Below, piece by piece: positions 16,578 to 29,753 of a DNA stretch of 29,753 nucleotides. The notes beneath the pieces were generated by a model, which saw nothing but the letters and a program-made list of their open reading frames with translations, searched no databases and had not been told where the DNA came from. The stretch is from a virus (lineage: Duplodnaviria > Heunggongvirae > Uroviricota > Caudoviricetes), in IMG/VR virus record IMGVR_UViG_2541047785_000004, positions 1 to 29,753 of that record. The stretch is one strand, 5' to 3'. The translations under genes were made by a program, and so were the position numbers. Position 1 is the stretch's first letter. Each line of letters starts with the position of its first letter.

Positions 16578-16733
16578 TTACTTCTCAGATTCGTAGTCCA
16601 CGAAGACAGCAACCTCCGTCTGGCCGGTTCGGATTCGTACCTCGCAGAGGTCTTTCCTCGTTACCAGTGCCGTCACTATGACGGTTAAACAGATGACGAT
16701 CAGGGCGATTAACATCGCCTTTTGCTGCTTCAT
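16578..16733 (-). CDS. hok: Hok/Gef-family type I toxin (HokD/RelF-like), 51 aa
   Basis: MKQQKAMLIALIVICLTVIVTALVTRKDLCEVRIRTGQTEVAVFVDYESEK: single TM helix plus the conserved LTRK.LCE.R...EVA.F..YE tail of Hok proteins; AAGGAG RBS 9 nt upstream; stable hairpin GGCGGGAG/CTCCCGCC (16547-16568) in the 3' region. Confidence 0.8.
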   Translation of the reverse strand: MKQQKAMLIALIVICLTVIVTALVTRKDLCEVRIRTGQTEVAVFVDYESEK

Positions 16734-17023
16734 AGCCTGCTTCTCCTTGCCTTTCGGCACGTAAGAGGCTAACCTAGATTTGCCGTTCATAGATTGAGCC
16801 TCAGATTAATGTTAAGCGTCTTGCAGGACGCGTAATGTTAACTGGGCTTTTCTTTATCTGCCTTTTGATGTTCATGCCTGAGACAGATAGCCTCAAGCAC
16901 CCGCAGCGATTTTACTTACCCTCCCCTCTAGTTCATTCGATACTACAACTTTATTTTCTTTTCGTTGTCTATATAGTAAATAACATGTAATAAAAGTTAG
17001 TCACTAACAATGGAGAGATGCAT

Positions 17024-17242
17024 ATGCCCACACTTATCGGAAAAGTGCTTCGTCGATACACAAGTGCTGTAGCAACCCATGTTGACACCCATCTTGAGCA
17101 AACGACAAAATATCGTCTTACAGTTGATGCGAACGGTAATGCCACCCTGAACATAGAAAACCCAGAAGTTCAAGCAGACATCATCAAGAAAATGAAACAA
17201 TTGCGAAAACTACATAACCGTACAGACAAGGAAGTTGCTTAA
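17024..17242 (+). CDS. Small soluble hypothetical protein (72 aa), first gene of a coupled two-gene cassette
   Basis: GGAGAG 6 nt upstream of the ATG at 17024; stop overlaps the downstream start (TAATG at 17240-17244). Confidence 0.55.
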   Translation: MPTLIGKVLRRYTSAVATHVDTHLEQTTKYRLTVDANGNATLNIENPEVQADIIKKMKQLRKLHNRTDKEVA

Positions 17243-18033
17243 TGGGTCCATTGATTATAACTGTGATTCTCGTGTGTGGTTTTTGGTACACCGAGAATCA
17301 CTATCAATCGAGAATTCATCACGCAAGAACAAATGGGTGGTCATCCTATTTCTACGTTGCAATGCATGGGTGTCGTTTTGTTGCTCAAGGATTTCTTTTG
17401 ACGCTCGGGATCTACATGCTTTTCTGGCTACTGAACTCTATCCCACACATAATCAATATTTTCCGAGACAAACCTATAGAATGGCATTTTTTTAATTGGT
17501 TACTTGAAACCAAAGTGATGGAATTACCACTTTTTGCTGTCATCACCATCATTTTCGCTTGTTGTATTGCTTACTCTGAAGGGGTGGATGCGCGAAAAGA
17601 AATGGAGAATGAAGAAGCGCGGCAAAAGGCTTACAGGGAGATGGCATCAAAAGATTCACTAGAAAACCTATTGATCCAAGCCATTGACACAGAGATGCTG
17701 ATTTTTGTAACACTAAAATCCAGAAAAGTATATATCGGGTATGTGGCAGCACCACGTGTTGAATTCCACAACAGTGCGCATCTTGAGATCATACCATTCA
17801 TTAGTGGTTACAGAGATAAGGATTCACTACGCTACATAGAACAACACCGATACTATGATCTCTATCTATCCAAAGAAATCACATTTGAGTCCGAACCATT
17901 AAATTTACAACATTTTCGACACGTCATTCCTATCGAACAAATTGAAGCGATCTCGCTCTTTGATGAAAGCACGTACAGCGATTTTGAAAGATTTTCCGAG
18001 CCAATGCCTGACACAAAGCAATTACCAGTATAG
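17242..18033 (+). CDS. Membrane protein with three N-terminal TM helices and a ~150-aa cytoplasmic domain of unknown function, 263 aa
   Basis: Hydrophobic segments PLIITVILVCGFWY, FLLTLGIYMLFWLLNSI, LPLFAVITIIFACCIAY, then a charged soluble domain; low GC; opposite strand to the flanking early-operon genes. Confidence 0.7.
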   Translation: MGPLIITVILVCGFWYTENHYQSRIHHARTNGWSSYFYVAMHGCRFVAQGFLLTLGIYMLFWLLNSIPHIINIFRDKPIEWHFFNWLLETKVMELPLFAVITIIFACCIAYSEGVDARKEMENEEARQKAYREMASKDSLENLLIQAIDTEMLIFVTLKSRKVYIGYVAAPRVEFHNSAHLEIIPFISGYRDKDSLRYIEQHRYYDLYLSKEITFESEPLNLQHFRHVIPIEQIEAISLFDESTYSDFERFSEPMPDTKQLPV

Positions 18034-18237
18034 TATTACCCCCCCCTCTAACGATATACTAAAAAGCCGCTACAACTGGACTGCCCCTATAAAGTTGGAC
18101 AGTTCATGTTAAGCGGCTTTCAGGGCTTGACCCAACAGAAGTTAGATTGTAAGTATCCCGCTTAAACGGACCATCTGGTCTTTGTTCCACGGTGACGTGC
18201 TCATACTCATACCTCCTGAAATGTGGGAGATTTGAGT

Positions 18238-18366
18238 ATGGTTGTCCCTTATGAGAGAAATTTGCACGAAGTGGATAAGTTACCGGAGCTGAAGGTCCGC
18301 TGTGAGCGAAGAGCGGACCTGAGATTGTGGTATGCTAATTTATGGGGATCAGGTCAATTGTATTAG
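18238..18366 (+). CDS. Possible 42-aa small ORF with hairpin-sequestered RBS
   Basis: GGGAGA 7 nt upstream of the ATG at 18238; peptide MVVPYERNLHEVDKLPELKVRCERRADLRLWYANLWGSGQLY; the RBS pairs with the upstream ACCTCC; contains a 9-bp perfect stem (18293-18320). Confidence 0.25.
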   Translation: MVVPYERNLHEVDKLPELKVRCERRADLRLWYANLWGSGQLY

Positions 18367-19055
18367 TTATCTTTTTGCTTTTCTTTATCCCATTTCTTTG
18401 CAGTGGTCTGATACCACTCTTCACGTACTCGTTGTTCCTCGGCTCTGTCACTTGAATTATAGTTGTCTGTTTTAATTTTTTTGCTTCCATGGGAAATCGG
18501 CCTCCAGTCTTCTCTAATCTTTTTCACCTGCTCGGCTATCTGTGTCATTGGACTCCTTGCACCTAAGTAGCTAACCCCCTCGAAAGAAGCCATATCATAA
18601 GAATACTCATTCCGCTCTCTTTCAGTTGAGCCCGGCTGTTTAGACCAACTAATACTAACAGAATAAACTTGATCTTTAATCTGTTCATACTTACAAAGAC
18701 TGCTGTTGAGCGAATGGCCGTTTTTTAATACGCTAACCTTGCTAAATGGTATACCTATATTTTTTCTATGTTCAGCATTTACCAGTGGGGGATTAAATCC
18801 GATTTCAATATCATAGGCTGGGGCATTTCCGGTATTAGCAATATTGATATCAAAATAAAAAGCAGCCCAAGAATTTGGTTCAAGAGTCACAACGACGTGA
18901 GGTTGAACTGATGCGTCAACCATCCTTTTTGTCTCGTCTGCTAATAGCCTTGTTACTCTCCACAAGAAAAATGTAGCAACTGCTGTTAGCAATGCTGCCA
19001 AAGCGGAGATAAGTGTGCTTACTGTGTTTATATGCTCTGCGATAAATTCGATCAT
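18363..19055 (-). CDS. Membrane-anchored hypothetical protein (single N-terminal TM, ~190-aa soluble domain), 230 aa
   Basis: AAGGA RBS 7 nt upstream of the ATG; N-terminal helix VSTLISALAALLTAVATFFLW; own long (~450 bp) upstream region; low GC. Confidence 0.7.
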   Translation of the reverse strand: MIEFIAEHINTVSTLISALAALLTAVATFFLWRVTRLLADETKRMVDASVQPHVVVTLEPNSWAAFYFDINIANTGNAPAYDIEIGFNPPLVNAEHRKNIGIPFSKVSVLKNGHSLNSSLCKYEQIKDQVYSVSISWSKQPGSTERERNEYSYDMASFEGVSYLGARSPMTQIAEQVKKIREDWRPISHGSKKIKTDNYNSSDRAEEQRVREEWYQTTAKKWDKEKQKDN

Positions 19056-20718: not shown

Positions 20719-21513
20719 TCACTTTTCCGACACAATACGACTGGAGGAATCGACAATCTGTCGGACAATATCCCGGTGCTTGTTCAGCTCCCGCAGCGCG
20801 GCGCAGACTCGCTCCCACTTCTGGACATGACTTTTCGCCCGGCGAAGTTCGCGGCTTGCCATATGCAGCGATGGTAAAATCAGGCCATTCGCTCGCGTTT
20901 CGGTGAACGATGGCAACGACTGCACAATGTCCCCCACAGTATCTGTTTTAATTTCTTCCTGTGTTGCCGCTTCCTGTACTGGTAACGCAACACCGGCTGG
21001 CTGAGGAAAGCCTTTACCAGGTGTTTTCGCTACCGATACAACTTTCGGCTCTGCTGGTAAATTTTCCCCGGTTTCTTTTACCAGCATCCACTTACACCCC
21101 TTCCCCTGTCCCAGCTTAATCGCCATGCCATCGCGGCAAAGCTTTTCCATCGCAGAAACCAGCGACCTGACGCAATCAGCACGCCCCACAGCAATTGCAA
21201 TCTCAGCGGTGGTCATTGCCCCACTATGAGCAAGTGTGGACAGGATTTCGCAGCGTTTCAGTGGCTCACGCTCTTTTCTACTGACCACCGGATGGGATTT
21301 TCTTTCCACTTTACACACCGTTACTTTTTTTTCTTTCACGCCCGTTTGTCGTTCTGAAACAGACCAGTAACCATTAACCGACACAACTTCTCCCAGCTCT
21401 TCGTACTCCCTCAGCATTTTAATCGCCTCTGCAGGTTCAATGCCCAAACTGGCAGCAAGCTCGGTGCACGTCACCTTTTGCATCGCTTTTAACGTATCAA
21501 TCAACGTTTCCAT
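20719..21513 (-). CDS. Replication-module protein at the P position (no Walker motif recognised), ~264 aa from the ATG at 21513
   Basis: GGGAGA RBS before the ATG at 21513; two winged-helix-like segments; immediately follows the O-like initiator. Function inferred from position only. Confidence 0.5.
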   Translation of the reverse strand: METLIDTLKAMQKVTCTELAASLGIEPAEAIKMLREYEELGEVVSVNGYWSVSERQTGVKEKKVTVCKVERKSHPVVSRKEREPLKRCEILSTLAHSGAMTTAEIAIAVGRADCVRSLVSAMEKLCRDGMAIKLGQGKGCKWMLVKETGENLPAEPKVVSVAKTPGKGFPQPAGVALPVQEAATQEEIKTDTVGDIVQSLPSFTETRANGLILPSLHMASRELRRAKSHVQKWERVCAALRELNKHRDIVRQIVDSSSRIVSEK

Positions 21514-21557
21514 CAAAATTTCTCCCGTTAAAATCATTTACCAATCTCAAACCAAAC

Positions 21558-22520
21558 TTATCCCCTGAACCCTGGCGGAATTTCGGTGTCCGGTTCAGAA
21601 ATATGATTCACACAACGCTGTACAGGCGAACGCCCCAGACGGATAACCAGCTCATCCCATTTATCGCGAAGTTTTGACGGACTCATGATGTTTTTTACCC
21701 AGAATGGATCCCGCTGTACCCGACCAAACATTTCGCAGATTTGTCTGTGAGTTCTGCCATCCAGCATCCGCATTATGCGCACGTCATTGGCCCATGCTGT
21801 CCAGTTGGGTTCTTTCGGTCGGGTGATCTCGCCATCATCGCTGGCGGCCTGTTCGTAAAGACTCACGATTCGCCCCCAGATCCACTGTGCGCATGCCAAA
21901 TCCTCCTGATTTCCCCACTGACGTTTTTTTGCACTAAACACAATCGCATCAGGATGTCGGGTTAAAAAGTCCTGTTCAGCCGTCTGCGGGTCCGGTTGCG
22001 AAGCTTCCGGACGAAAAGATCTTTTATCTGACGGATCAGGTTTTAATACTGACGGATCGGGGCCAACCATCGCCCCCCTAACCGGCTGTTTTTTACAAAC
22101 GGTTGATCCATCAAAATTTGACGGGTCAATCGTTGAGGGGGCAATATTTGACTGGTCAACTGTTAACGGGTCATTTTTTGCCGGGCTAATTTTTCTTTTC
22201 GGTTTATATGCCTCACGCGCCGCCTCAGCTGCTGCTTCGAGTTTTTCCACATTAAGGCGGTAGATATTGCTTTCATTACGCCCACCGACCTTACGCTCCT
22301 CCTTCGTCAGCCAGCCGTTCTTTTCCAGTTCCGCTATCGCCGCTTTAACCGTTGATTCACTCTTTGCCCCAATCTGACGACGAATGGTCTCCACTGCAGG
22401 CCATGACACACCTTCGTCATTGCTGTAGTCTGCAAGGCGAGCCATTACTGCCACCCTGGATAAGATCATGCCGGTGAAGGCGCACCCTTCCCAGACAAGA
22501 CCATGAAGCTTGCTGCTCAT
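21558..22520 (-). CDS. Replication initiator (lambda O analogue) carrying the origin iterons in its coding sequence, 320 aa
   Basis: N-terminal HTH-like region (VSWPAVETIRRQIGAKSESTVKAAIAELEKNGWL), central repetitive peptide (PLTVDQSNIAPSTIDPSNFDGSTV) encoded by DNA iterons, and an AT-rich tract on the 5' side of the iterons. Confidence 0.75.
   Translation of the reverse strand: MSSKLHGLVWEGCAFTGMILSRVAVMARLADYSNDEGVSWPAVETIRRQIGAKSESTVKAAIAELEKNGWLTKEERKVGGRNESNIYRLNVEKLEAAAEAAREAYKPKRKISPAKNDPLTVDQSNIAPSTIDPSNFDGSTVCKKQPVRGAMVGPDPSVLKPDPSDKRSFRPEASQPDPQTAEQDFLTRHPDAIVFSAKKRQWGNQEDLACAQWIWGRIVSLYEQAASDDGEITRPKEPNWTAWANDVRIMRMLDGRTHRQICEMFGRVQRDPFWVKNIMSPSKLRDKWDELVIRLGRSPVQRCVNHISEPDTEIPPGFRG
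22026..22205. repeat. Origin of replication: six iterons (TTGAC-GG-GTCAA type) plus adjacent AT-rich tract, inside the O-like gene
   Basis: ctgacggatcagg (22028-22040), ctgacggatcgg (22049-22060), ttgatccatcaa (22103-22114), ttgacgggtcaa (22118-22129), ttgactggtcaa (22148-22159), ttaacgggtcat (22163-22174), then tcattttttgccgggctaatttttcttttcggtttatatg. Confidence 0.7.
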
Positions 22521-22543
22521 AAAAAACCCCGAACACCGTGCTT

Positions 22544-22969
22544 TTAGTGCATCACCACAGCATTTCCTGCCGGGCCACCACGATTCATCTGATTGAAACC
22601 GGCGATTGCCACTGCGACAAAATCATCAGCGTCTCTCACCAGTCGTTCCCGCGTCTCCACCAACTCCCGAAAATAGACTGAACTGTGGCTGCGCATCCGG
22701 GCCACCAGCAGAGGTGGCATTGCTTTTTCGATCGCTGGTAACAACGCCTGAATTTTTTCAACCGCATCAGTAGTGTCTTTCTCCACCCAGCGGAAAATTT
22801 TCTGGGTATTACGAGCCAGGGCTTCTGGATGGCTGTCGTCGTACAGTTCCGGGGACGTCATTCCCAGTTCGAAATAAGCCCTGGTTATCTTGGCCGCCGG
22901 AACTTTTTCACCATCCGGACGCGCCCAAGCATTCATCGCCATGCGGATGTGTTCATGCTTGATTTTCAT
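22544..22969 (-). CDS. ydaT: YdaT-like protein (Rac-type, CII-position), 141 aa
   Basis: Begins MKIKHEHI... as recalled for Rac YdaT; second gene of the rightward early operon, after the Cro-like gene. Confidence 0.6.
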   Translation of the reverse strand: MKIKHEHIRMAMNAWARPDGEKVPAAKITRAYFELGMTSPELYDDSHPEALARNTQKIFRWVEKDTTDAVEKIQALLPAIEKAMPPLLVARMRSHSSVYFRELVETRERLVRDADDFVAVAIAGFNQMNRGGPAGNAVVMH

Positions 22970-22991
22970 GAATCATTTGCCTCTTGATGTT

Positions 22992-23288
22992 TCAGGTATG
23001 ATCAAATGAGGATTTGTTACTGTCATTTAGTTGCTTCACTGACATATTCTGCGAACAACATGCCGAACGTCGTAAATATGACCAGTCAATATCAGGACGA
23101 AGTTCTTCGCACAGAACCTCACCTCTTGTTGCACGTTCAATTGCTGGACATCTCTCGGCAGGCAATTGACGTACCCCTTTGATCCATTGATTTACGCTTG
23201 GAGGTGATACACCTAAAAGCCTAGCCATTGCTGATTGCCCACCGACAACAGCACAAGCTTGCTTGAATGAATAGTTCTCTTTTTTCAT
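22992..23288 (-). CDS. ydaS: Cro-like HTH regulator (YdaS-like), 98 aa
   Basis: MKKENYSFKQACAVVGGQSAMARLLGVSPPSVNQWIKGVRQLP... HTH; divergent from the repressor gene with operators between; matches Rac YdaS as recalled. Confidence 0.8.
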   Translation of the reverse strand: MKKENYSFKQACAVVGGQSAMARLLGVSPPSVNQWIKGVRQLPAERCPAIERATRGEVLCEELRPDIDWSYLRRSACCSQNMSVKQLNDSNKSSFDHT

Positions 23289-23411
23289 CGAATGAACTCC
23301 AAAAACACACAGAAATATTAGGCGACGCCTAACGTAAATGTCAATAGGCTATGCCTAATGCGATAAAGGTAGGGATTGCCTAATGCAATGAGCATAGGAG
23401 AATATTAAGCA
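23289..23411. promoter_or_regulatory. Right operator/promoter region: palindromic operators TTAGGC-N3-GCCTAA overlapping a TTGACA-N18-TAATAT promoter for the cro-like gene
   Basis: Perfect palindrome ttaggcgacgcctaa (23318-23332); taggctatgcctaa (23345-23358); half-site ttgcctaatgca (23376-23387); minus-strand -35 TTGACA (23339-23344), -10 TAATAT (23315-23320). Confidence 0.65.
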
Positions 23412-23888
23412 ATGCTTAGTGGTAAAGACTTAGGCCGAGCGATAGAGCAGGCCATTAACAAAAAAATCGCATCGGGATCCGTCAAATCAAAGGCGGAGGT
23501 CGCACGCCACTTCAAAGTCCAACCACCATCAATTTATGACTGGATTAAGAAAGGCTCTATAAGTAAAGATAAACTTCCAGAATTATGGCGTTTCTTTTCT
23601 GATGTTGTTGGTCCAGAGCATTGGGGGCTTAACGAATACCCCATACCAACCCCCACCAATTCAGATACAAAAAGTGAACTTTTAGATATAAACAACCTTT
23701 ATCAAGCAGCCTCTGATGAAATAAGAGCGATTGTAGCTTTCCTGTTATCTGGAAATGCTACAGAACCAGATTGGGTTGACCACGATGTTCGCGCCTACAT
23801 AGCAGCGATGGAAATGAAAGTGGGTAAGTATCTGAAAGCTCTAGAATCTGAACGGAAAAGCCAGAACATCACAAAAACTGGAACTTAA
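23412..23888 (+). CDS. racR: Prophage repressor (RacR-like), 158 aa
   Basis: AGGAG RBS; HTH AEVARHFKVQPPSIYDWIKKGS; divergent from the cro-like gene and flanked on both sides by the same operator repeats; matches Rac RacR as recalled. Confidence 0.8.
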   Translation: MLSGKDLGRAIEQAINKKIASGSVKSKAEVARHFKVQPPSIYDWIKKGSISKDKLPELWRFFSDVVGPEHWGLNEYPIPTPTNSDTKSELLDINNLYQAASDEIRAIVAFLLSGNATEPDWVDHDVRAYIAAMEMKVGKYLKALESERKSQNITKTGT

Positions 23889-23960
23889 ACTTATATGGTC
23901 TGACGGAAAACTCCTAGATTCCGTTATTTAACCCCCCCATCACTTTCTGCTGTCGCCATC

Positions 23961-24027
23961 ACCTATTAGGTTACGATCAAAACATTAGGCATAGCCTATT
24001 GACAATCAATTAGGCATTACCTATAGT
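23961..24027 (+). promoter_or_regulatory. Left operator/promoter region (pL-like): TTGACA-N17-TATAGT with overlapping TTAGGCAT(A/T)(G/A)CCTA operators
   Basis: ttaggcatagccta (23985-23998), ttaggcattaccta (24010-24023); -35 TTGACA 23999-24004, -10 TATAGT 24022-24027; mirrors the cctattgaca motif of the right promoter. Confidence 0.6.
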
Positions 24028-24207
24028 TCCAGCATACCACCCACCCCGCCCCACAGAACGCAGGGCAATACTTCGAGTTACCAGGCAGTGGTCAGGGGTT
24101 AAGTAGCCAGCCCGAGGCGTAAGAACATGACGGCAGGGTTCAACTTTAATAACTATGCAGCAGGTTTTTGTTCCGCTACCCCGGCGTTAAGGGGACATGA
24201 GGTCAAC

Positions 24208-24360
24208 ATGGATACTATCGATCTTGGCAACAACGAATCTCTGGTATACGGCGTGTTTCCCAACCAGGACGGCACATTCACCGCGATGACGTATACCAAA
24301 AGCAAAACGTTTAAAACCGAATCTGGCGCGCGTCGCTGGTTAGCCAGAAATACTGACTGA
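24208..24360 (+). CDS. DUF1391-like small early protein (YdaF/YdfA-like), 50 aa
   Basis: GAGG RBS; MDTIDLGNNESLVYGVFPNQDGTFTAMTYTKSKTFKTESGARRWLARNTD resembles the recalled Rac/Qin YdaF/YdfA family. Confidence 0.6.
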   Translation: MDTIDLGNNESLVYGVFPNQDGTFTAMTYTKSKTFKTESGARRWLARNTD

Positions 24361-24371
24361 TGAGGTTGACT

Positions 24372-24761
24372 ATGGAATTTAAAGATTTACCAAAAGAAAT
24401 CCAAGAAATTGCAGCACATACACTTCGTCAACGTCTGAACGAAGTTGCATTAGAAGCTGAAACGAAAAAAGACATTGATAATATGGCTCGTAATGTGCGC
24501 GATGCGTTTACCGGACTGTATTCTGTTTCTGTTGAGGACAATAACATTCCTGACGAACAGGAAGAGAGTACAGACCCCCACAAATTCTGGAAATCTGTAG
24601 AGGTCATTGCAAAAGCCAAACTACTGGAACTTAACAACTTATATCATCGTGAGAATGATGGTCGTCAATCTTTGCATCATCAGGGAGTCGCCACCCTGAT
24701 AGCTCTAACGAAAGAGCAAGGCGAATATCATCCAGTGGCATTAAACGACACTGTGAAATAG
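24372..24761 (+). CDS. Hypothetical early-left protein, 129 aa (3' end overlaps a convergent ORF)
   Basis: GAGG RBS 7 nt upstream of the ATG at 24372; amphipathic charged N-terminal region; last ~40 codons overlap the minus-strand ORF 24631-24930. Confidence 0.5.
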   Translation: MEFKDLPKEIQEIAAHTLRQRLNEVALEAETKKDIDNMARNVRDAFTGLYSVSVEDNNIPDEQEESTDPHKFWKSVEVIAKAKLLELNNLYHRENDGRQSLHHQGVATLIALTKEQGEYHPVALNDTVK

Positions 24762-24930
24762 TCCATCCATGTTTACGGGATAGATAAAGATATATCGCTT
24801 CGAAACCATCGACATGGTTTGGATAGCCTTCCTCAGCAGCAAGGTTATCCCCAAAACATTCAAGAATATAATTTAAACGCGCTGTTTCATAATGAATCTT
24901 CCAGCGAGTCTGATTTAGTTTGCTGACCAT
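24631..24930 (-). CDS. Hypothetical protein at the sieB-equivalent (convergent) slot, ~99 aa from the ATG at 24930
   Basis: GGAGGA 10 nt upstream of the ATG at 24930; MVSKLNQTRWKIHYETARLNYILECFGDNLAAEEGYPNHVDGFEAIYLYLSRKHGW...; convergent with the early-left operon. Confidence 0.45.
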   Translation of the reverse strand: MVSKLNQTRWKIHYETARLNYILECFGDNLAAEEGYPNHVDGFEAIYLYLSRKHGWTISQCRLMPLDDIRLALSLELSGWRLPDDAKIDDHHSHDDISC

Positions 24931-25278
24931 TTTAATTTTATCCTCCATTGAGGTTACTGGTTGAGAATGGAGACCACACGTGACAGCGCGTGGTCGTGCG
25001 CCGGACACGGATAAGAATCCGGCACAAACAGTTTACTGAAAGGATATATCCCTGAAAAGTCAGGGCATAACGCGAAAGCGCACGGCGAAGTCATTCCTCC
25101 CTTTGTTGTGTACCACTGACATCTTCGTCTGTGCGCTTCCGGTTGTGGCAATCCGCGAAATGGCGCGGCGGTAAGTATGGCGGGGTTATTCCTTCCCCGT
25201 TGAGGACACCGGGTTGTCAGGTTGACCATACGCTTAAGTGACAACCCCGCTGCAACAACCCATGTTGATTACCTTTTG

Positions 25279-25328
25279 GCGGGTATCCGTTTTTTGTTTT
25301 CCCTTGTGATACCCGCCCTTTTTAAAGT
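25279..25328 (+). terminator. Plus-strand intrinsic terminator-like hairpin (10-bp stem ggcgggtatc/gatacccgcc, 20-nt loop, then CTTTTTAAA)
   Basis: Seen directly; in the GC-rich non-coding stretch of the early-left operon. Confidence 0.45.
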
Positions 25329-25506
25329 GAATTTTGTGATGCGGTGAATGCGGCTCAGCGCACGCGGAACAGTTAAAAAGGCCAGTTGACTTCCGTATTG
25401 GTTCTTATGGGTGGGTTCTCTGTATCCGGCGTTAATTATTAACTGGTTAACGTCACCTGGAGGCACCAGGCACCGCATCACAAAATTCATTGTTGAGGAT
25501 GCGATA

Positions 25507-25689
25507 ATGGAAACGTTATTACCAAACGTCAATACGTCTGAAGGTTGTTTTGAAATTGGTGTCAGAATCAGTAACCCTGTATTTACTGAAGATGCCATTA
25601 ATAAGAGAAAACACGAACGGGAGCTATTAAATCAAATATGCATTGTTTCAATGCTGGCCCGTTTACGCCTGATGCAAAAAGGACGATGA
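25507..25689 (+). CDS. Small early protein (KilR/YdaE-position), 60 aa
   Basis: GAGGA RBS before the ATG at 25507; METLLPNVNTSEGCFEIGVRISNPVFTEDAINKRKHERELLNQICIVSMLARLRLMQKGR; stop overlaps the next start (ATGA). Confidence 0.5.
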   Translation: METLLPNVNTSEGCFEIGVRISNPVFTEDAINKRKHERELLNQICIVSMLARLRLMQKGR

Positions 25690-25895
25690 CAATGAATACA
25701 GTATTTGCACTCGTTCTGACGGTTTTTCTTAATACAGGCGAGCCAGTCGATCTTGTTATTGGTATACATGACTCAATGAAAGAATGCATGGCTGCCGCAG
25801 CGGAACAGAAAATTCCCGGCAACTGTTATCCGGTTGATAAAGTTATTCGCATGGACAATAACGAAATCCCGGCAGGACTTAAAACAGCACCGTAA
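25686..25895 (+). CDS. Small protein with hydrophobic N-terminus (signal/anchor-like), 69 aa
   Basis: MTMNTVFALVLTVFLNTGEPVDLVIGIHDSMKECMAAAAEQKIPGNCYPVDKVIRMDNNEIPAGLKTAP; translationally coupled to the upstream ORF. Confidence 0.5.
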   Translation: MTMNTVFALVLTVFLNTGEPVDLVIGIHDSMKECMAAAAEQKIPGNCYPVDKVIRMDNNEIPAGLKTAP

Positions 25896-25975
25896 TTAAT
25901 ATCCGGTTTCATTTTTATATGCCAGCAATGGCAGGGATTTGTTCACCCTTAAATCTGTAATGAGGTTAAAACAAA

Positions 25976-28447
25976 ATGAGTAAAGTCTTTATTTGCGCCG
26001 CCATTCCGGACGAACAGGCAATAAAGGAAGAAGGTGCAGTCGCTGTAGCCACTGCCATTGAAGCCGGCGACGAACGCCGCGCCCGAGCCAAATTTACCTG
26101 GCAATTCCTGGAGCAATATCCGGCTGCTCAGGACTGCGCTTATAAATTTCTTGTTTGCGAGGATAAACCCGGCATGCCCCGCCCTGCCATCGACTCCTGG
26201 GATACCGAATATATGCAGGAAAACTGCTGGGATGAGGAATCCGCTTCCTTTATTCCGGTCGAACCAGAATCCGATCCGATGAACGTCAATTTTGACAAGC
26301 TGTCCCCTGAAGTACAGAACGCGGTCCTGGTTAAGTTCGACACATGTGAAAACATCACCATTGATATGGTTATTAGCGCACAGGAATTGTTGCAGGAAGA
26401 CATGGCAACATTCGACGGACATATCGTTGAAGCGTTGATGAAAATGCCAGAAGTTAACGCCATGTATCCGGAGCTTAAGTTGCACGCCATTGGGTGGGTT
26501 AAGCATAAATGTATTCCTGGTGCTAAATGGCCCGAAATTCAGGCAGAGATGCGCATCTGGAAAAAACGTCGCGAAGGTGAACGCAAGGAAACCGGAAAAT
26601 ACACGTCTGTTGTTGATCTCGCCCGCGCCAGAGCCAATCAACAGTACACTGACAATTCAACAGGAAAAATCAGCCCGGTCATTGCTGCCACTCATCGCGA
26701 ATACAAGCAGACATGGAAAACACTGGATGACGAACTGGCCTACGCTCTCTGGCCTGGTGATGTGGATGCCGGAAACATTGACGGCAGCATCCATCGCTGG
26801 GCAAAAAATGAAGTTATCGACAACGACCGCGAAGACTGGAAGCGTATCTCGGCATCAATGCGCAAACAGCCTGATGCCCTTCGCTACGACCGCCAGACTA
26901 TTTTTGGCCTTGTCCGTGAACGTCCGATCGACATTCACAAAGACCCTGTGGCACTGAACAAATACATTACTGAATACCTGACTACAAAGGGCGTGTTTGA
27001 AGATGAAGGAAGAAATCAGAGCGCAACTGATACTCTCTCGTCGCCAGTACCAGAAACTGATGCAGTGGAAACGGCAATTCCGGACAACGAAAAAACCGAA
27101 TGCAAAGTGGAAGTCGAACCATCTGTAGAGCGTGAGGGGCCGTTCTACTTCCTCTTCACCGACAAGGATGGCGAAAAATATGGTCGCGCAAACAAACTTT
27201 CTGGTCTGAATAAGGCGCTGACTGCAGGGGCTACTGAAATCACGAAAGAAGAATATTTTGCCCGTAAAAACGGTACATACTCAGGTTCACAACAAAATAC
27301 TGGTGCATCTGACACGACCGCACAACCAGAGCCGGTAAAAGTTACCGCTGACGAAGTAAACAAAATTATGCAGGCAGCCAATATCACCCAGCCTGACGCC
27401 GATAAGTTGCTTGCTGTATCACGTGGTGAATTTGTTGCAGGGATTAGCGACCCGAATGATCCGAAATGGGTGAAGGGGATTGAAACCCGCGATTCAGTGA
27501 ATCAGAACCAGCAAGAAACGGAACAGAACGACCAGAAAGCGGAACAAAACAGCCCAAATGCGTTACAAAACGAGCCAGAAACGAAACAACCTGAGCCAGT
27601 AGCGCAACAGGAAGCGGAAAAAGTCTGCACCGCCTGCGGTCAGACCGGCGGCGGCAACTGCCCTGATTGTGGTGCGGTGATGGGCGACGCAACATACCAG
27701 GAAACATTCGATGACAAGAACCAGGTTGAAGTTCAGGAAGACGATTCGGAGAAAATGGAAGGCGCTGAACATCCACACAAAGAGAATGCTGGCAGCGCTC
27801 AGGATCACGCCAGCGATAGTGAAACTGGCGAGACGGCAGATCCCTTAATTACGGTGAACGGTCATCACGTTATCACATCCACCAGCAGGACGTGTGACCA
27901 TCTAATGATCGACCTTGAAACCATGGGAAAAAATCCTGATGCCCCGATTATCTCAATAGGTGCAATATTTTTCGATCCTCAAACCGGAGATATGGGACCG
28001 GAATTTAGTAAGACTATCGATCTGGAAACTGCTGGCGGAGTCATTGATCGGGACACCATTAAATGGTGGCTTAAGCAATCACGCGAAGCGCAATCTGCCA
28101 TTATGACCGATGAAATCCCGTTAGATGATGCACTGTTACAATTGCGGGAATTTATCGACGAAAACTCCGGTGAATTTTTTGTTCAGGTCTGGGGAAATGG
28201 AGCCAACTTCGACAACACGATTTTGCGCCGTTCATACGAACGGCAGGGGATCCCCTGCCCGTGGCGTTACTACAACGATCGCGATGTACGCACAATCGTT
28301 GAGCTGGGGAAAGCCATAGACTTCGATGCCAGAACGGCTATTCCATTCGAAGGTGAGCGCCATAATGCACTTGATGACGCCCGTTACCAGGCAAAATACG
28401 TTTCAGCAATCTGGCAAAAACTGATCCCGAATCCGGTTGATTTTTAA
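25976..28447 (+). CDS. RecE-like large recombination protein with a CxxC…CxxC zinc ribbon and a C-terminal DnaQ-like DEDDh 3'-5' exonuclease domain, 823 aa
   Basis: Central region (EREGPFYFLFTDKDGEKYGRAN…, DADKLLAVSRGEFVAGISDPNDPKWVKGIETRD) resembles recalled RecE N-terminal/middle segments; zinc ribbon CTACGQTGGGNCPDCG; exonuclease motifs MIDLETMG (Exo I), WGNGANFDNTIL (Exo II), HNALDDARY (Exo III, DEDDh). Confidence 0.8.
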   Translation: MSKVFICAAIPDEQAIKEEGAVAVATAIEAGDERRARAKFTWQFLEQYPAAQDCAYKFLVCEDKPGMPRPAIDSWDTEYMQENCWDEESASFIPVEPESDPMNVNFDKLSPEVQNAVLVKFDTCENITIDMVISAQELLQEDMATFDGHIVEALMKMPEVNAMYPELKLHAIGWVKHKCIPGAKWPEIQAEMRIWKKRREGERKETGKYTSVVDLARARANQQYTDNSTGKISPVIAATHREYKQTWKTLDDELAYALWPGDVDAGNIDGSIHRWAKNEVIDNDREDWKRISASMRKQPDALRYDRQTIFGLVRERPIDIHKDPVALNKYITEYLTTKGVFEDEGRNQSATDTLSSPVPETDAVETAIPDNEKTECKVEVEPSVEREGPFYFLFTDKDGEKYGRANKLSGLNKALTAGATEITKEEYFARKNGTYSGSQQNTGASDTTAQPEPVKVTADEVNKIMQAANITQPDADKLLAVSRGEFVAGISDPNDPKWVKGIETRDSVNQNQQETEQNDQKAEQNSPNALQNEPETKQPEPVAQQEAEKVCTACGQTGGGNCPDCGAVMGDATYQETFDDKNQVEVQEDDSEKMEGAEHPHKENAGSAQDHASDSETGETADPLITVNGHHVITSTSRTCDHLMIDLETMGKNPDAPIISIGAIFFDPQTGDMGPEFSKTIDLETAGGVIDRDTIKWWLKQSREAQSAIMTDEIPLDDALLQLREFIDENSGEFFVQVWGNGANFDNTILRRSYERQGIPCPWRYYNDRDVRTIVELGKAIDFDARTAIPFEGERHNALDDARYQAKYVSAIWQKLIPNPVDF

Positions 28448-28513
28448 TGTTCAACCCTGATCGCCGTCCCCGAATTATATTGGCGGCGGTCATGCTGTAA
28501 GGCACGTGACCAC

Positions 28514-28765
28514 ATGTACGAATTAACTCTATCGCCAGCAGAGATTCAAGAGATCACGAAATACGAGCGATACACAAAACAGCAACACCAGTTAAGGCTG
28601 CACGGTATCCCATTTGTAATCGGTCCTAAAAACGAACCAATAGTTCTTCGCAGGGATATTCCACACGGACTGACTACGATGCCAAAAGCACCTGAACTGG
28701 TTTCCGCTGAACCCGATTTTGAGGCGCTGAACAATGGGAAGACCAAGAAAAAACAAAAAAGATAA
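28514..28765 (+). CDS. xis: Putative excisionase (Xis-position protein), 83 aa
   Basis: Immediately upstream of and overlapping the integrase start as in lambda; N-terminal MYELTL and basic C-terminus NNGKTKKKQKR loosely resemble lambda Xis (MYLTLQEW…NGKKAKS). Confidence 0.5.
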   Translation: MYELTLSPAEIQEITKYERYTKQQHQLRLHGIPFVIGPKNEPIVLRRDIPHGLTTMPKAPELVSAEPDFEALNNGKTKKKQKR

Positions 28766-29753
28766 TGCACTACCACCGCGTGTTAGATCGAATGGTTACA
28801 GTTACGTATGGAAACCCGAAGGAAGCACAAGAACTATAGGGCTCGGAAGAGTGTGGGAAACCAGCGTAGCTAAAGTCTGGCAAAATTATGAGCTGGAAAA
28901 AGCAAAACTCCACAACATAATGACAGTAGCTAAATTATGGCACATGTTTATGGACTCCCCTGCATTTACAGAACTGGCCCCCCGAACCCAAAAAGATTAT
29001 CGGCAACATCAAAGGGCATTGTTGGCAGTATTCGGAAAAGTGCTTGCTGATAATGTAAAAATTGAACAGGTAAGAATTTTCATGGATAAGCGAGGACTTG
29101 AGAGCAAGACCCAGGCAAACCATGAACTGGCAAGTCTGAGCCGTGTATACGGATGGGGATATGAGCGTGGGTATGTGAAAAATAATCCATGCAAAGGAGT
29201 CAGAAAATTCACACTTAAAGCCCGTACTGTTTACATCACCGATGAACAGTATGCTGCAATATATGCGGAAGCAATTCCACAGTTACGTATTGCAATGGAG
29301 ATATCCTATCTTTGTGCGGCAAGGCTCGGTGATGTACTCGAGCTGAAATGGCAGGATATTATGGAGAAAGGGATTTACATTGAGCAAAACAAGACCGGCA
29401 CTAAACAAATCAAGGAATGGTCTCCGCGATTACGTACGGCGATCCAGTTAGCCCGAAATGTATCTTCCGGCACATGCGAGTATGTGATCAACACAACCAA
29501 AGGCGGGAAGGTAATAGCCAAGACGCTGAACAACTGGTGGAATCAGGCTAAACGTGCAGCCGAGCAAAAAGCCGGCGTTCCGTTTGGGTGCAACTTCCAT
29601 GACATAAAAGCCAAAGGGATTTCAGATTACGAAGGCAGCAGTCGCGACAAACAAATTTTCAGTGGACACAAAACAGAAAATCAGGTGTTGATTTACGATC
29701 GTAAAACCAAAATAACACCAACACTGGATTTGCCGCTTGTGGTCAGTAAGTAG
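28734..29753 (+). CDS. int: Tyrosine integrase, lambda Int family, 339 aa (stop at window end)
   Basis: N-terminal arm-binding-like region MGRPRKNKKDNALPPRVRSNGYSYVWKPEGSTRTIGLGR; catalytic region IAMEISYLCAARLGDVLELKW…IYIEQNKTG…FHDIKAKG…SGHKTENQVLIYDRK carries the R…K…H…H…Y signature in lambda Int order. Confidence 0.9.
   Translation: MGRPRKNKKDNALPPRVRSNGYSYVWKPEGSTRTIGLGRVWETSVAKVWQNYELEKAKLHNIMTVAKLWHMFMDSPAFTELAPRTQKDYRQHQRALLAVFGKVLADNVKIEQVRIFMDKRGLESKTQANHELASLSRVYGWGYERGYVKNNPCKGVRKFTLKARTVYITDEQYAAIYAEAIPQLRIAMEISYLCAARLGDVLELKWQDIMEKGIYIEQNKTGTKQIKEWSPRLRTAIQLARNVSSGTCEYVINTTKGGKVIAKTLNNWWNQAKRAAEQKAGVPFGCNFHDIKAKGISDYEGSSRDKQIFSGHKTENQVLIYDRKTKITPTLDLPLVVSK

Follow-up and report, generated by a model that had tools for sequence, protein, structure and literature searches.

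RacR is among the few essential transcription factors of Escherichia coli K-12, and the racR-ydaS-ydaT module of the Rac prophage is under study by several groups. Does this repressor act only on the side of its gene that faces ydaS, or does it also hold down a promoter on the other side? We addressed this question in a stretch of 29,753 nucleotides (positions 1 to 29,753 of the IMG/VR virus record IMGVR_UViG_2541047785_000004; hereafter the window), in which a first-pass annotation made from the letters of the sequence had described symmetric operator sets around a RacR-like repressor gene and had read them as a compact switch similar to the right and left operators (OR and OL) of phage lambda. 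We consider it very likely that this region is the lambda-like immunity switch of a Rac-type lambdoid prophage, in which RacR bound to palindromic sites represses two outward promoters. The right half of such a switch is already experimentally established in K-12 and the left half is supported by conservation across genera and by RNA sequencing (RNA-seq), while the analogy to lambda is incomplete. Overall, the annotation appears to be a correct reading of an already known lambda-like switch, and the one element that appears new is the left-hand operator and promoter cassette (OL/PL) downstream of racR, together with its wide conservation.

The features discussed below are collected in Table 1. 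We refer to the ydaS side as right-hand (promoter PydaST, the equivalent of PR) and to the opposite side as left-hand; at each promoter pal-a is the palindrome that adjoins the -35 hexamer and pal-b the one that lies in the promoter spacer. These directions, also used in the first-pass annotation, are correct on the lambda map, but in window coordinates the promoter of the cro-like gene fires toward lower positions and that of the early-left operon toward higher positions.

Palindromes cluster on both sides of racR

The whole window served as the search space, with gene calls taken from a list of open reading frames (ORFs) and from profile searches. The palindrome TTAGGC-N3-GCCTAA, with up to two mismatches, matched at five positions (23318, 23344, 23369, 23985, and 24010), all of them within the 361 intergenic nt that flank racR and make up 1.2% of the window. 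In 500 dinucleotide-preserving shuffles of the window the mean was 1.0 match (standard deviation 1.05), five or more matches were reached in three, and a pair of matches 23-27 nt apart occurred in none. When three mismatches were allowed the number of matches was at chance level (13 against 10.8 expected), and the hexamer TTAGGC is not enriched window-wide (9 occurrences against 12.5 expected, 7 of the 9 within 23318-24015); the signal of good sites therefore resides only in the clustered, regularly spaced matches. These counts uphold the earlier description of a perfect palindrome at 23318-23332 with variants on both sides of the repressor gene. The symmetry ascribed to the two sets does not hold, as there are four sites on the ydaS side versus two good sites and one degenerate site on the other; the fourth right-hand site (23405-23419) and a lone half-site (23430-23435) had been overlooked.

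The gene between the two clusters is racR itself. Its product scores 244.6 bits on the NCBIfam equivalog NF049929 (cut-off 200) and is identical to K-12 RacR at 158 of 158 residues, which makes the "RacR-like" of the first-pass annotation exact. The Pfam search yielded only a sub-threshold HTH_17 match and no match to Peptidase_S24, the lambda-type autocleavage domain, and no sequence relative was found in the PDB at E <= 1. The gene context is that of the RacR family, with racR divergent from ydaS (Cro-like) and ydaT (CII-like). The window YdaS is identical to that of K-12 (98/98 residues). The E. coli chromosome NZ_OU342919.1 matches the 1.5 kb around racR at 100% identity, and most of this segment is present in 1085 of 5426 complete E. 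coli genomes. The same region, also 100% identical to E. coli and with all five sites, was seen in a 5.2-kb contig binned as "Candidatus Nanosynbacter" (L004, JARKOR010000130.1), which is almost certainly a mis-binned E. coli contig.

A putative second operator and promoter cassette downstream of racR

The left-hand cassette lies about 97 nt beyond the racR stop codon, and the distance from pal-a to pal-a across racR is about 640 bp. Its promoter, TTGACA-N17-TATAGT on the + strand, was found as first proposed. Promoter-like matches in the region are no more numerous than expected (4 versus 4.1), but PydaST and the left-hand promoter score best among them. The cctattgaca context of the -35 hexamer, which had been noted as common to both promoters, belongs to a 22-nt perfect inverted repeat (23339-23360 and 23983-24004) that spans the -35 and the adjoining palindrome at each. 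The cassette is also present, and identical, in K-12 (L001, 4630-4669). In sequence and by comparison, the locus thus appears to possess the second operator cluster over an outward early-left promoter that a lambda-type switch would have, with a predicted transcript start near A24034, and the comparative evidence says that the cassette is functional.

A further left-hand site may be present upstream of pal-a. Its counterpart has only two mismatches in E. ruysiae and many E. coli prophages; as the site has four in the window and is not conserved outside Escherichia, we list it as degenerate only. Single E. coli-type prophages (L198-type variants) were observed with TTGATA, TTTACA, or TATAGC hexamers and both palindromes kept, and these changes may be natural down-mutations of the early-left promoter. 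The predicted early-left leader (24028-24126) has a C-rich, G-poor start (ccagcataccacccaccccgccccaca) and resembles a Rho-utilisation region; no N-like antiterminator gene was seen.

A description of sites downstream of racR, including the literal cassette sequences, was not found in the searchable literature. The paper of Conter et al. (J. Bacteriol., 1996) on the Rac kil gene may deal with control of kil by the Rac repressor, and an older mention is thus possible.

Conservation of the cassette among RacR relatives

A diverse sample of eight loci was chosen through the RacR homologue only. In Mixta, Morganella, Proteus, Achromobacter, Pigmentiphaga, and Klebsiella phage KpF5, whose repressors are 56-75% identical to RacR, the two palindromes of the downstream pair are spaced exactly 25 nt apart; TGAC follows the first, TAT follows the second, and the surrounding sequence is unrelated to that of E. 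coli. A second sample came from a scan of viral contigs for pal-a followed by TGAC, and a RacR homologue is encoded at 96 of the 120 loci selected by this pattern. With all fetched loci pooled, the downstream pair was found at 104 of 112 loci with a homologue (33-100% identity, from Gamma- and Betaproteobacteria).

The downstream cassette has the form palindrome-TGACA-N5-palindrome-TAT. It lies 61-3420 nt beyond the stop codon of the repressor gene, shares that gene's strand in every case, and is directed outward from it. Across 30 distinct distant cassettes, the half-sites of pal-b and the TAT carry about 2 bits, though they lie outside the search pattern, and the palindrome centre, linker, and flanks carry almost no information. 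On the cro side, the promoter of the relatives consists of this same cassette in inverted orientation, and the distance between the pal-a sites of the two sets ranges from about 600 to 4000 bp. Homologues whose half-site is TTAGGC all keep the predicted recognition region of the repressor, PPSI(Y/H)DWIKKG, unaltered; in the most divergent homologues (PPTVS.DWLK and PPSVQGWIN) the sites read TAAGGC/GCCTTA.

A protein-guided scan of viral contigs returned 80 loci, and because all were of E. coli type (92-100%) it serves as a within-species check only. Among the E. coli-type viral loci chosen by protein, both operator sets were present in 76 of 78, and the other two had one extra mismatch in pal-b.

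The ydaS-side operators correspond to those published for K-12

The right-hand set of the window is the same element as the racR-ydaS operators of K-12 Rac (PMC5700373; PMC9638921; Gucwa 2023, PMC11014345; PMC11879457). Those papers treat the racR-ydaS side only, and mention of a cassette downstream of racR was not found in them; the RacR regulon, including the ydaFG operon, is called uncharacterised there. Repeats of the published RacR consensus, 5'-(T/A)TAGGC-n3-GCCTA(T/A)-3' (PMC9638921), start at 23318, 23344, 23369, and 23405 and cover PydaST and the racR start. The promoter TTGACA-N18-TAATAT that had been assigned to the cro-like gene is indeed there, on the - strand, and the tandem sites overlap its core in the manner of a lambda-type switch (pal-b in the spacer and -10, pal-a at the -35).

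The K-12 DNA aligns with the window around racR at a mean column identity of 96%, and in the control regions all differences fall outside the described sites. The racR-ydaS intergenic region is 123 nt long in both. All eight substitutions in it are in linkers or in the central N3, and none is in a half-site or a PydaST hexamer; the chance of such a placement is about 0.008 by a hand estimate assuming random placement. The four right-hand operators and the PydaST and PracR3 hexamers are identical in the window and in K-12.

Experiments on K-12 bear on each of these elements. In the 123-bp intergenic region Krishnamurthi (2017) identified three GCCTAA/TTAGGC repeats; there RacR formed three complexes in electrophoretic mobility shift assays (a 49-bp fragment carrying a single repeat gave one complex), was enriched in chromatin immunoprecipitation, and repressed a reporter (PMC5700373). 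Wisniewska (2022) mapped a single ydaS start site by primer extension, with -35 TTGACA and -10 TAATAT, and mutating this -10 abolished ydaS promoter activity (PMC9638921); the hexamers are further supported by -10/-35 mutagenesis and in vitro transcription (PMC9638921; PMC11879457). In the DNase I footprint the ydaST promoter region was protected first, at the lowest RacR concentration, and three racR promoters were mapped, the strongest of which produces a leaderless transcript (PMC9638921). Wons (2025) speaks of "four operators" and measured about 25,000 Miller units from PydaST alone (PMC11879457). RacR octamers have been reported by size exclusion, and the authors suggested that four dimers occupy the four right-hand sites. 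YdaS autorepresses PydaST (PMC9638921; PMC11879457) and did not repress racR in reporter assays (PMC9638921).

RacR autoregulation is also published for K-12 (PMC9638921), and the positions of the two extra right-hand sites fit it. The leaderless racR promoter has as its likely -35 TTGCCT (23376-23381), which the third operator overlaps; this assignment is our reading of the sequence relative to the published -10 GAGAAT (PMC9638921). The fourth is the published site "whose n3 spacer overlaps the initiating ATG" (PMC9638921) and is kept as TTAGGCAATGCTTAG, in the same place, in all relatives.

The E. coli Rac type has four right-hand operators versus three in the relatives (window 23318-23419 versus positions 2934-3008 in L006-L011 and L015). 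The additional operator, a palindrome with its linker spanning about 26 nt, seems to have arisen by duplication of one such unit. The relatives' -35-proximal site has its homologue in the site at 23369, which no longer carries the adjoining TGAC.

Table 1. Genes, promoters, and operator sites of the racR region, in window coordinates.
Feature	Position	Strand	Sequence and remarks
ydaT-family gene	22544..22969	-	141 aa; Pfam YdaT_toxin; PHROG "CII-like transcriptional activator"
ydaS, Cro-like gene	22992..23288	-	98 aa; Pfam YdaS_toxin (2.6e-31) and P22_Cro (3.4e-9); first gene of the ydaS-ydaT operon
PydaST, PR-equivalent promoter	23315..23344	-	-35 TTGACA 23344-23339; 18-nt spacer; -10 TAATAT 23320-23315; 10/12
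pal-b of PR	23318..23332		TTAGGCGACGCCTAA, perfect; in promoter spacer, 3-nt overlap with -10; identical in K-12
pal-a of PR	23344..23358		ATAGGCTATGCCTAA, 1 mismatch; abuts -35, 1-nt overlap; position kept in PR cassettes of relatives
Third right-hand operator	23369..23383		GTAGGGATTGCCTAA, 2 mismatches; homologous to the ATAGGAATTGCCTAA site of relatives
PracR3 -10	23398..23403	+	GAGAAT; strongest racR promoter, leaderless transcript; hexamer and mutagenesis for K-12 (PMC9638921), sequence identical here
Fourth right-hand operator	23405..23419		TTAAGCAATGCTTAG, 3 mismatches, itself symmetric; covers racR ATG 23412-23414
racR, repressor gene	23412..23888	+	158 aa; N-terminal helix-turn-helix domain and non-peptidase C-terminal domain
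Lone TTAGGC half-site	23430..23435	+	inside racR; mentioned in PMC5700373 and PMC9638921
Degenerate possible third left-hand site	23966..23980		TTAGGTTACGATCAA, 4 mismatches by eye; starts 19 nt before pal-a
Left-hand pal-a	23985..23999		TTAGGCATAGCCTAT, 1 mismatch; last base is first base of -35; kept in relatives
PL-equivalent promoter	23999..24027	+	-35 TTGACA 23999-24004; 17-nt spacer; -10 TATAGT 24022-24027; 11/12, best in region
Left-hand pal-b	24010..24024		TTAGGCATTACCTAT, 2 mismatches; in spacer, 3-nt overlap with -10; geometry as at PR
First annotated early-left gene, DUF1391 (ydaF-like)	24208..24360	+	longer ORF starts 24127; annotation from identical record NZ_OU342919.1
Further early-left genes		+	hypothetical; dicB 25507-25689; DUF1482; exonuclease 25976-28447; DUF4224; integrase 28734-29753

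Proposed mechanism and expression evidence

In the switch that we propose, RacR would bind the 15-bp TTAGGC-N3-GCCTAA palindromes, most likely as dimers and through its N-terminal helix-turn-helix. Both strong sigma-70 promoters point away from racR and share a plan of about 43 nt, in which the last base of pal-a is the first of the -35, 5-6 nt follow, and pal-b fills the spacer and overlaps the first three bases of the -10. The palindrome starts are 25-26 nt apart at both promoters, or about 2.4 helical turns, which is close to the spacing of 23-24 nt of the lambda operators. RacR on pal-a and pal-b would exclude RNA polymerase, as is published for PydaST and as we infer for the left-hand promoter, where RacR would bind the left-hand sites and repress transcription starting near 24034. 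Repression on the ydaS side would silence ydaS, ydaT, and the replication genes behind them, and repression on the other side the early-left operon, with its DUF1391 gene, dicB, exonuclease, excisionase-like gene, and integrase. RacR could regulate its own synthesis through the two further right-hand sites, of which 23369-23383 covers the -35 of the promoter for the leaderless racR transcript and 23405-23419 the ATG. By analogy with lambda CI, a RacR octamer may bridge both operator sets.

We put forward a more extended proposal tentatively: that the cassette is a true second RacR operator over a strong early-left promoter, that the octamer is an OR/OL bridge with two dimers on each side that loops the intervening ~640 bp, and that the 43-nt cassette is a portable unit serving short RacR-type or S24-type repressors across Gamma- and Betaproteobacteria. 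As a whole we hold this to be possible, falling somewhat short of probable.

Published transcript data for K-12 are consistent with a repressed promoter downstream of racR. When RacR was lowered, RNA-seq recorded 40-70-fold increases of ydaG, ydaF, kilR, ydaE, and racC. Similarly, CRISPR interference (CRISPRi) directed at racR reduced the racR transcript 11-20-fold, and ydaG, kilR, recE, xisR, and intR rose. Since racR falls while the downstream genes rise, a separate promoter downstream of racR is favoured over read-through. Read-through from the racR promoters is also disfavoured because a Rho-dependent terminator inside racR, trac, ends transcription there and protects cells from kil expression (PMC4150792). 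The position of dicB behind the left-hand promoter implies that loss of RacR should switch on a division inhibitor together with recombination and excision genes. Such induction cannot run by RecA-stimulated self-cleavage of RacR, as the protein has no S24 domain.

The OL/PL cassette could explain both the published early-left derepression and the RacR octamer. If it is a true operator pair, it offers a testable explanation for the rise of early-left genes when RacR drops, and it would explain why loss of RacR is coupled to prophage excision and to division inhibitors (KilR, or DicB in this prophage). The octamer would then have an alternative reading, and constructs carrying the intergenic region alone may miss part of the control. 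The gain is incremental, because the arrangement is the textbook lambdoid one; the cassette should be useful to those who work on RacR and will not surprise phage biologists, for whom it is the expected lambda-like counterpart.

Evidence against the proposed switch and alternative explanations

Several observations weigh against a RacR-controlled switch of this form. The large viral sample was chosen by a pattern that contains pal-a and TGAC, so that the conservation of these two elements is partly imposed; pal-b, the TAT, and the association with RacR are the only parts that do not depend on the pattern. In the protein-selected locus of Klebsiella sp. R390 (L008) the downstream pair was not found within 3 kb. 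The left-hand sites are imperfect in the window (one and two mismatches), and their affinity for RacR may therefore be low. Direct evidence of RacR binding, of a footprint, or of a transcript start at the left-hand cassette was not found in the searchable literature, from which subscription journals are largely absent. The derepression of early-left genes in RNA-seq may be indirect, through YdaS, YdaT, or prophage excision, and the analogy to lambda fails in part, in that YdaS does not repress racR (PMC9638921) and RacR has no S24 domain.

Indirect activation is central to one alternative, in which the left-hand cassette would be a non-functional duplicate of the ydaS promoter region, produced for example by recombination, and the early-left genes would be silenced by Rho termination at trac. 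The reported protection by this terminator against kil expression (PMC4150792) is consistent with such an account, as is the fact that mapping of a promoter downstream of racR was not found in the searchable literature. However, a terminator and a repressed promoter can coexist, and the CRISPRi result is the opposite of what read-through would produce. A relic would also be expected to decay, whereas both palindromes, the -35, and the -10 stay in register across genera amid differing surroundings, and the cassette never departs from the repressor's strand or its outward direction; we therefore regard an inactive relic as unlikely. We are more doubtful still that the palindromes, or at least the left-hand ones, chiefly serve YdaS, the Cro-like protein, or some other regulator. 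Points in favour are that Cro and CI use common operators in lambda, that YdaS autorepresses PydaST, as cited above, and that YdaT protects the ydaS promoter region in published footprints. Nevertheless, the RacR footprints coincide with the repeats and the 49-bp single-repeat fragment binds RacR (PMC9638921; PMC5700373), the YdaT motif is a different one (ATGATT-N6-AATCAA) and its authors saw no palindrome in the intergenic footprint, and the sites go together with the RacR-type N-terminal domain also at loci that have a different cro-like gene. It is possible that YdaS shares these sites, which would be compatible with control by RacR.

It is very improbable that the palindromes downstream of racR act as hairpins that terminate transcription. 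A consensus scan flagged two of the palindromes as terminator-like on the - strand, and short segments are more stably folded than shuffled sequences (z = -3.2 to -3.5), but the stems are only 5-7 bp long with 3-nt loops and are not followed by a T-run on the racR strand, as an intrinsic terminator would be. The favourable folding comes from neighbouring palindromes pairing with one another, the whole racR 3' region is unstructured (z = -0.7), and no Rfam family matched at the locus at gathering thresholds. For these reasons the terminator reading was rejected. The half-site letters are conserved without covariation and the loop varies freely across relatives, which argues that the palindromes are protein sites and not hairpins. 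Chance origin in AT-rich intergenic DNA, to which the three-mismatch count and the lack of hexamer enrichment might have pointed, has a negligible probability; it is excluded by the shuffle statistics, in which neither the number of good sites within 361 nt nor their regular 25-26-nt spacing is accounted for, and by the published RacR footprints, and it would leave the conservation in more than 100 loci unexplained.

Comparison with lambda, CP-933P, and S24-type repressors

The RacR-controlled switch that we favour resembles the cI/cro region of lambda in having a repressor gene between two outward promoters, each under tandem palindromic operators about 2.4 helical turns apart. Other likenesses are the extra sites over the repressor promoter (autoregulation), the leaderless repressor transcript, the repressor octamer, and the placement of Cro-like and CII-like genes to the right and of recombination and integration genes to the left. 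The Rac type differs from lambda in that its palindromes are 15 bp versus 17 bp and are arranged as 4 + 2 sites versus 3 + 3, and in that its OL follows closely on the repressor stop codon with no rexAB between them. The differences in repressor cleavage and in the action of YdaS have been given above. No sequence homology of RacR to CI was found in the Pfam or PDB searches run.

The prophage CP-933P of E. coli O157:H7 (Jurenas 2021, PMC8630535) likewise has a lambdoid immunity region, in which YdaS takes the part of Cro and YdaT that of CII. Its PaaR2/YdaS/YdaT module has the promoters PR933P, PRM933P, and PL933P, the -35 and -10 of PL are identical to those of PR, and there are three OL operators like those of OR; the repressor is octameric and its mRNA leaderless (PMC8630535). 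By analogy, CP-933P is a published precedent for a PR/PL cassette duplication as seen here. It differs in its repressor, PaaR2, in its operators, which are 18-bp repeats with the half-site GTTTAGTAA, and in the toxin-antitoxin pair that lies between the repressor gene and PL (PMC8630535). In addition, PL933P was reporter-tested (PMC8630535), whereas the putative PL of the Rac type is known here from its sequence.

A second group of relatives consists of S24-type CI repressors from Achromobacter and Pigmentiphaga prophages and IMG/VR contigs (L010, L011, and L059) and from Pseudomonas phages such as vB_PaeS-D14H and VW-6S (L016 and L017 are Pseudomonas phages). Their first 77 residues are 52-77% identical to RacR, but unlike RacR they are 283-366 aa long and have a C-terminal Peptidase_S24 domain, because of which they are probably SOS-inducible. 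The betaproteobacterial representatives have the same TTAGGC-N3-GCCTAA palindromes and the same PR and PL cassettes. The Pseudomonas versions have altered half-sites, and no clear downstream pair was found within the fetched flank. The fusion of a RacR-type DNA-binding domain to S24 implies that one operator specificity is paired with C-terminal domains of different kinds, and the mechanism of induction presumably differs between them.

Prophage mosaic and other observations

The prophage (window 20719-29753) is a mosaic in comparison with K-12 Rac. While racR and ydaS are identical to their K-12 counterparts, similarity breaks at the ydaS/ydaT boundary, and the window YdaT is only 33% identical to that of K-12. 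The replication genes differ, with an HTH_36 protein and a DUF1627 protein in place of ydaU and ydaV, and in the early-left operon dicB, DUF1482, and an 823-aa exonuclease replace kilR, racC, and recE. The prophage ends with the integrase, which adjoins yccA.

The published "YdaT-box", ATGATTCATGAAAATCAA, is present letter for letter at 22959-22976 (- strand), with the ydaT ATG in its spacer. An exact box beside so divergent a YdaT fits the reported cross-reactivity of distant YdaT proteins. The sok antitoxin RNA of a hok/sok module is present in full length at 16728-16902 (- strand; RF01794, 95.6 bits), and is the only Rfam match in the window at gathering thresholds. It adjoins an IS2 transposase (17174-18402).

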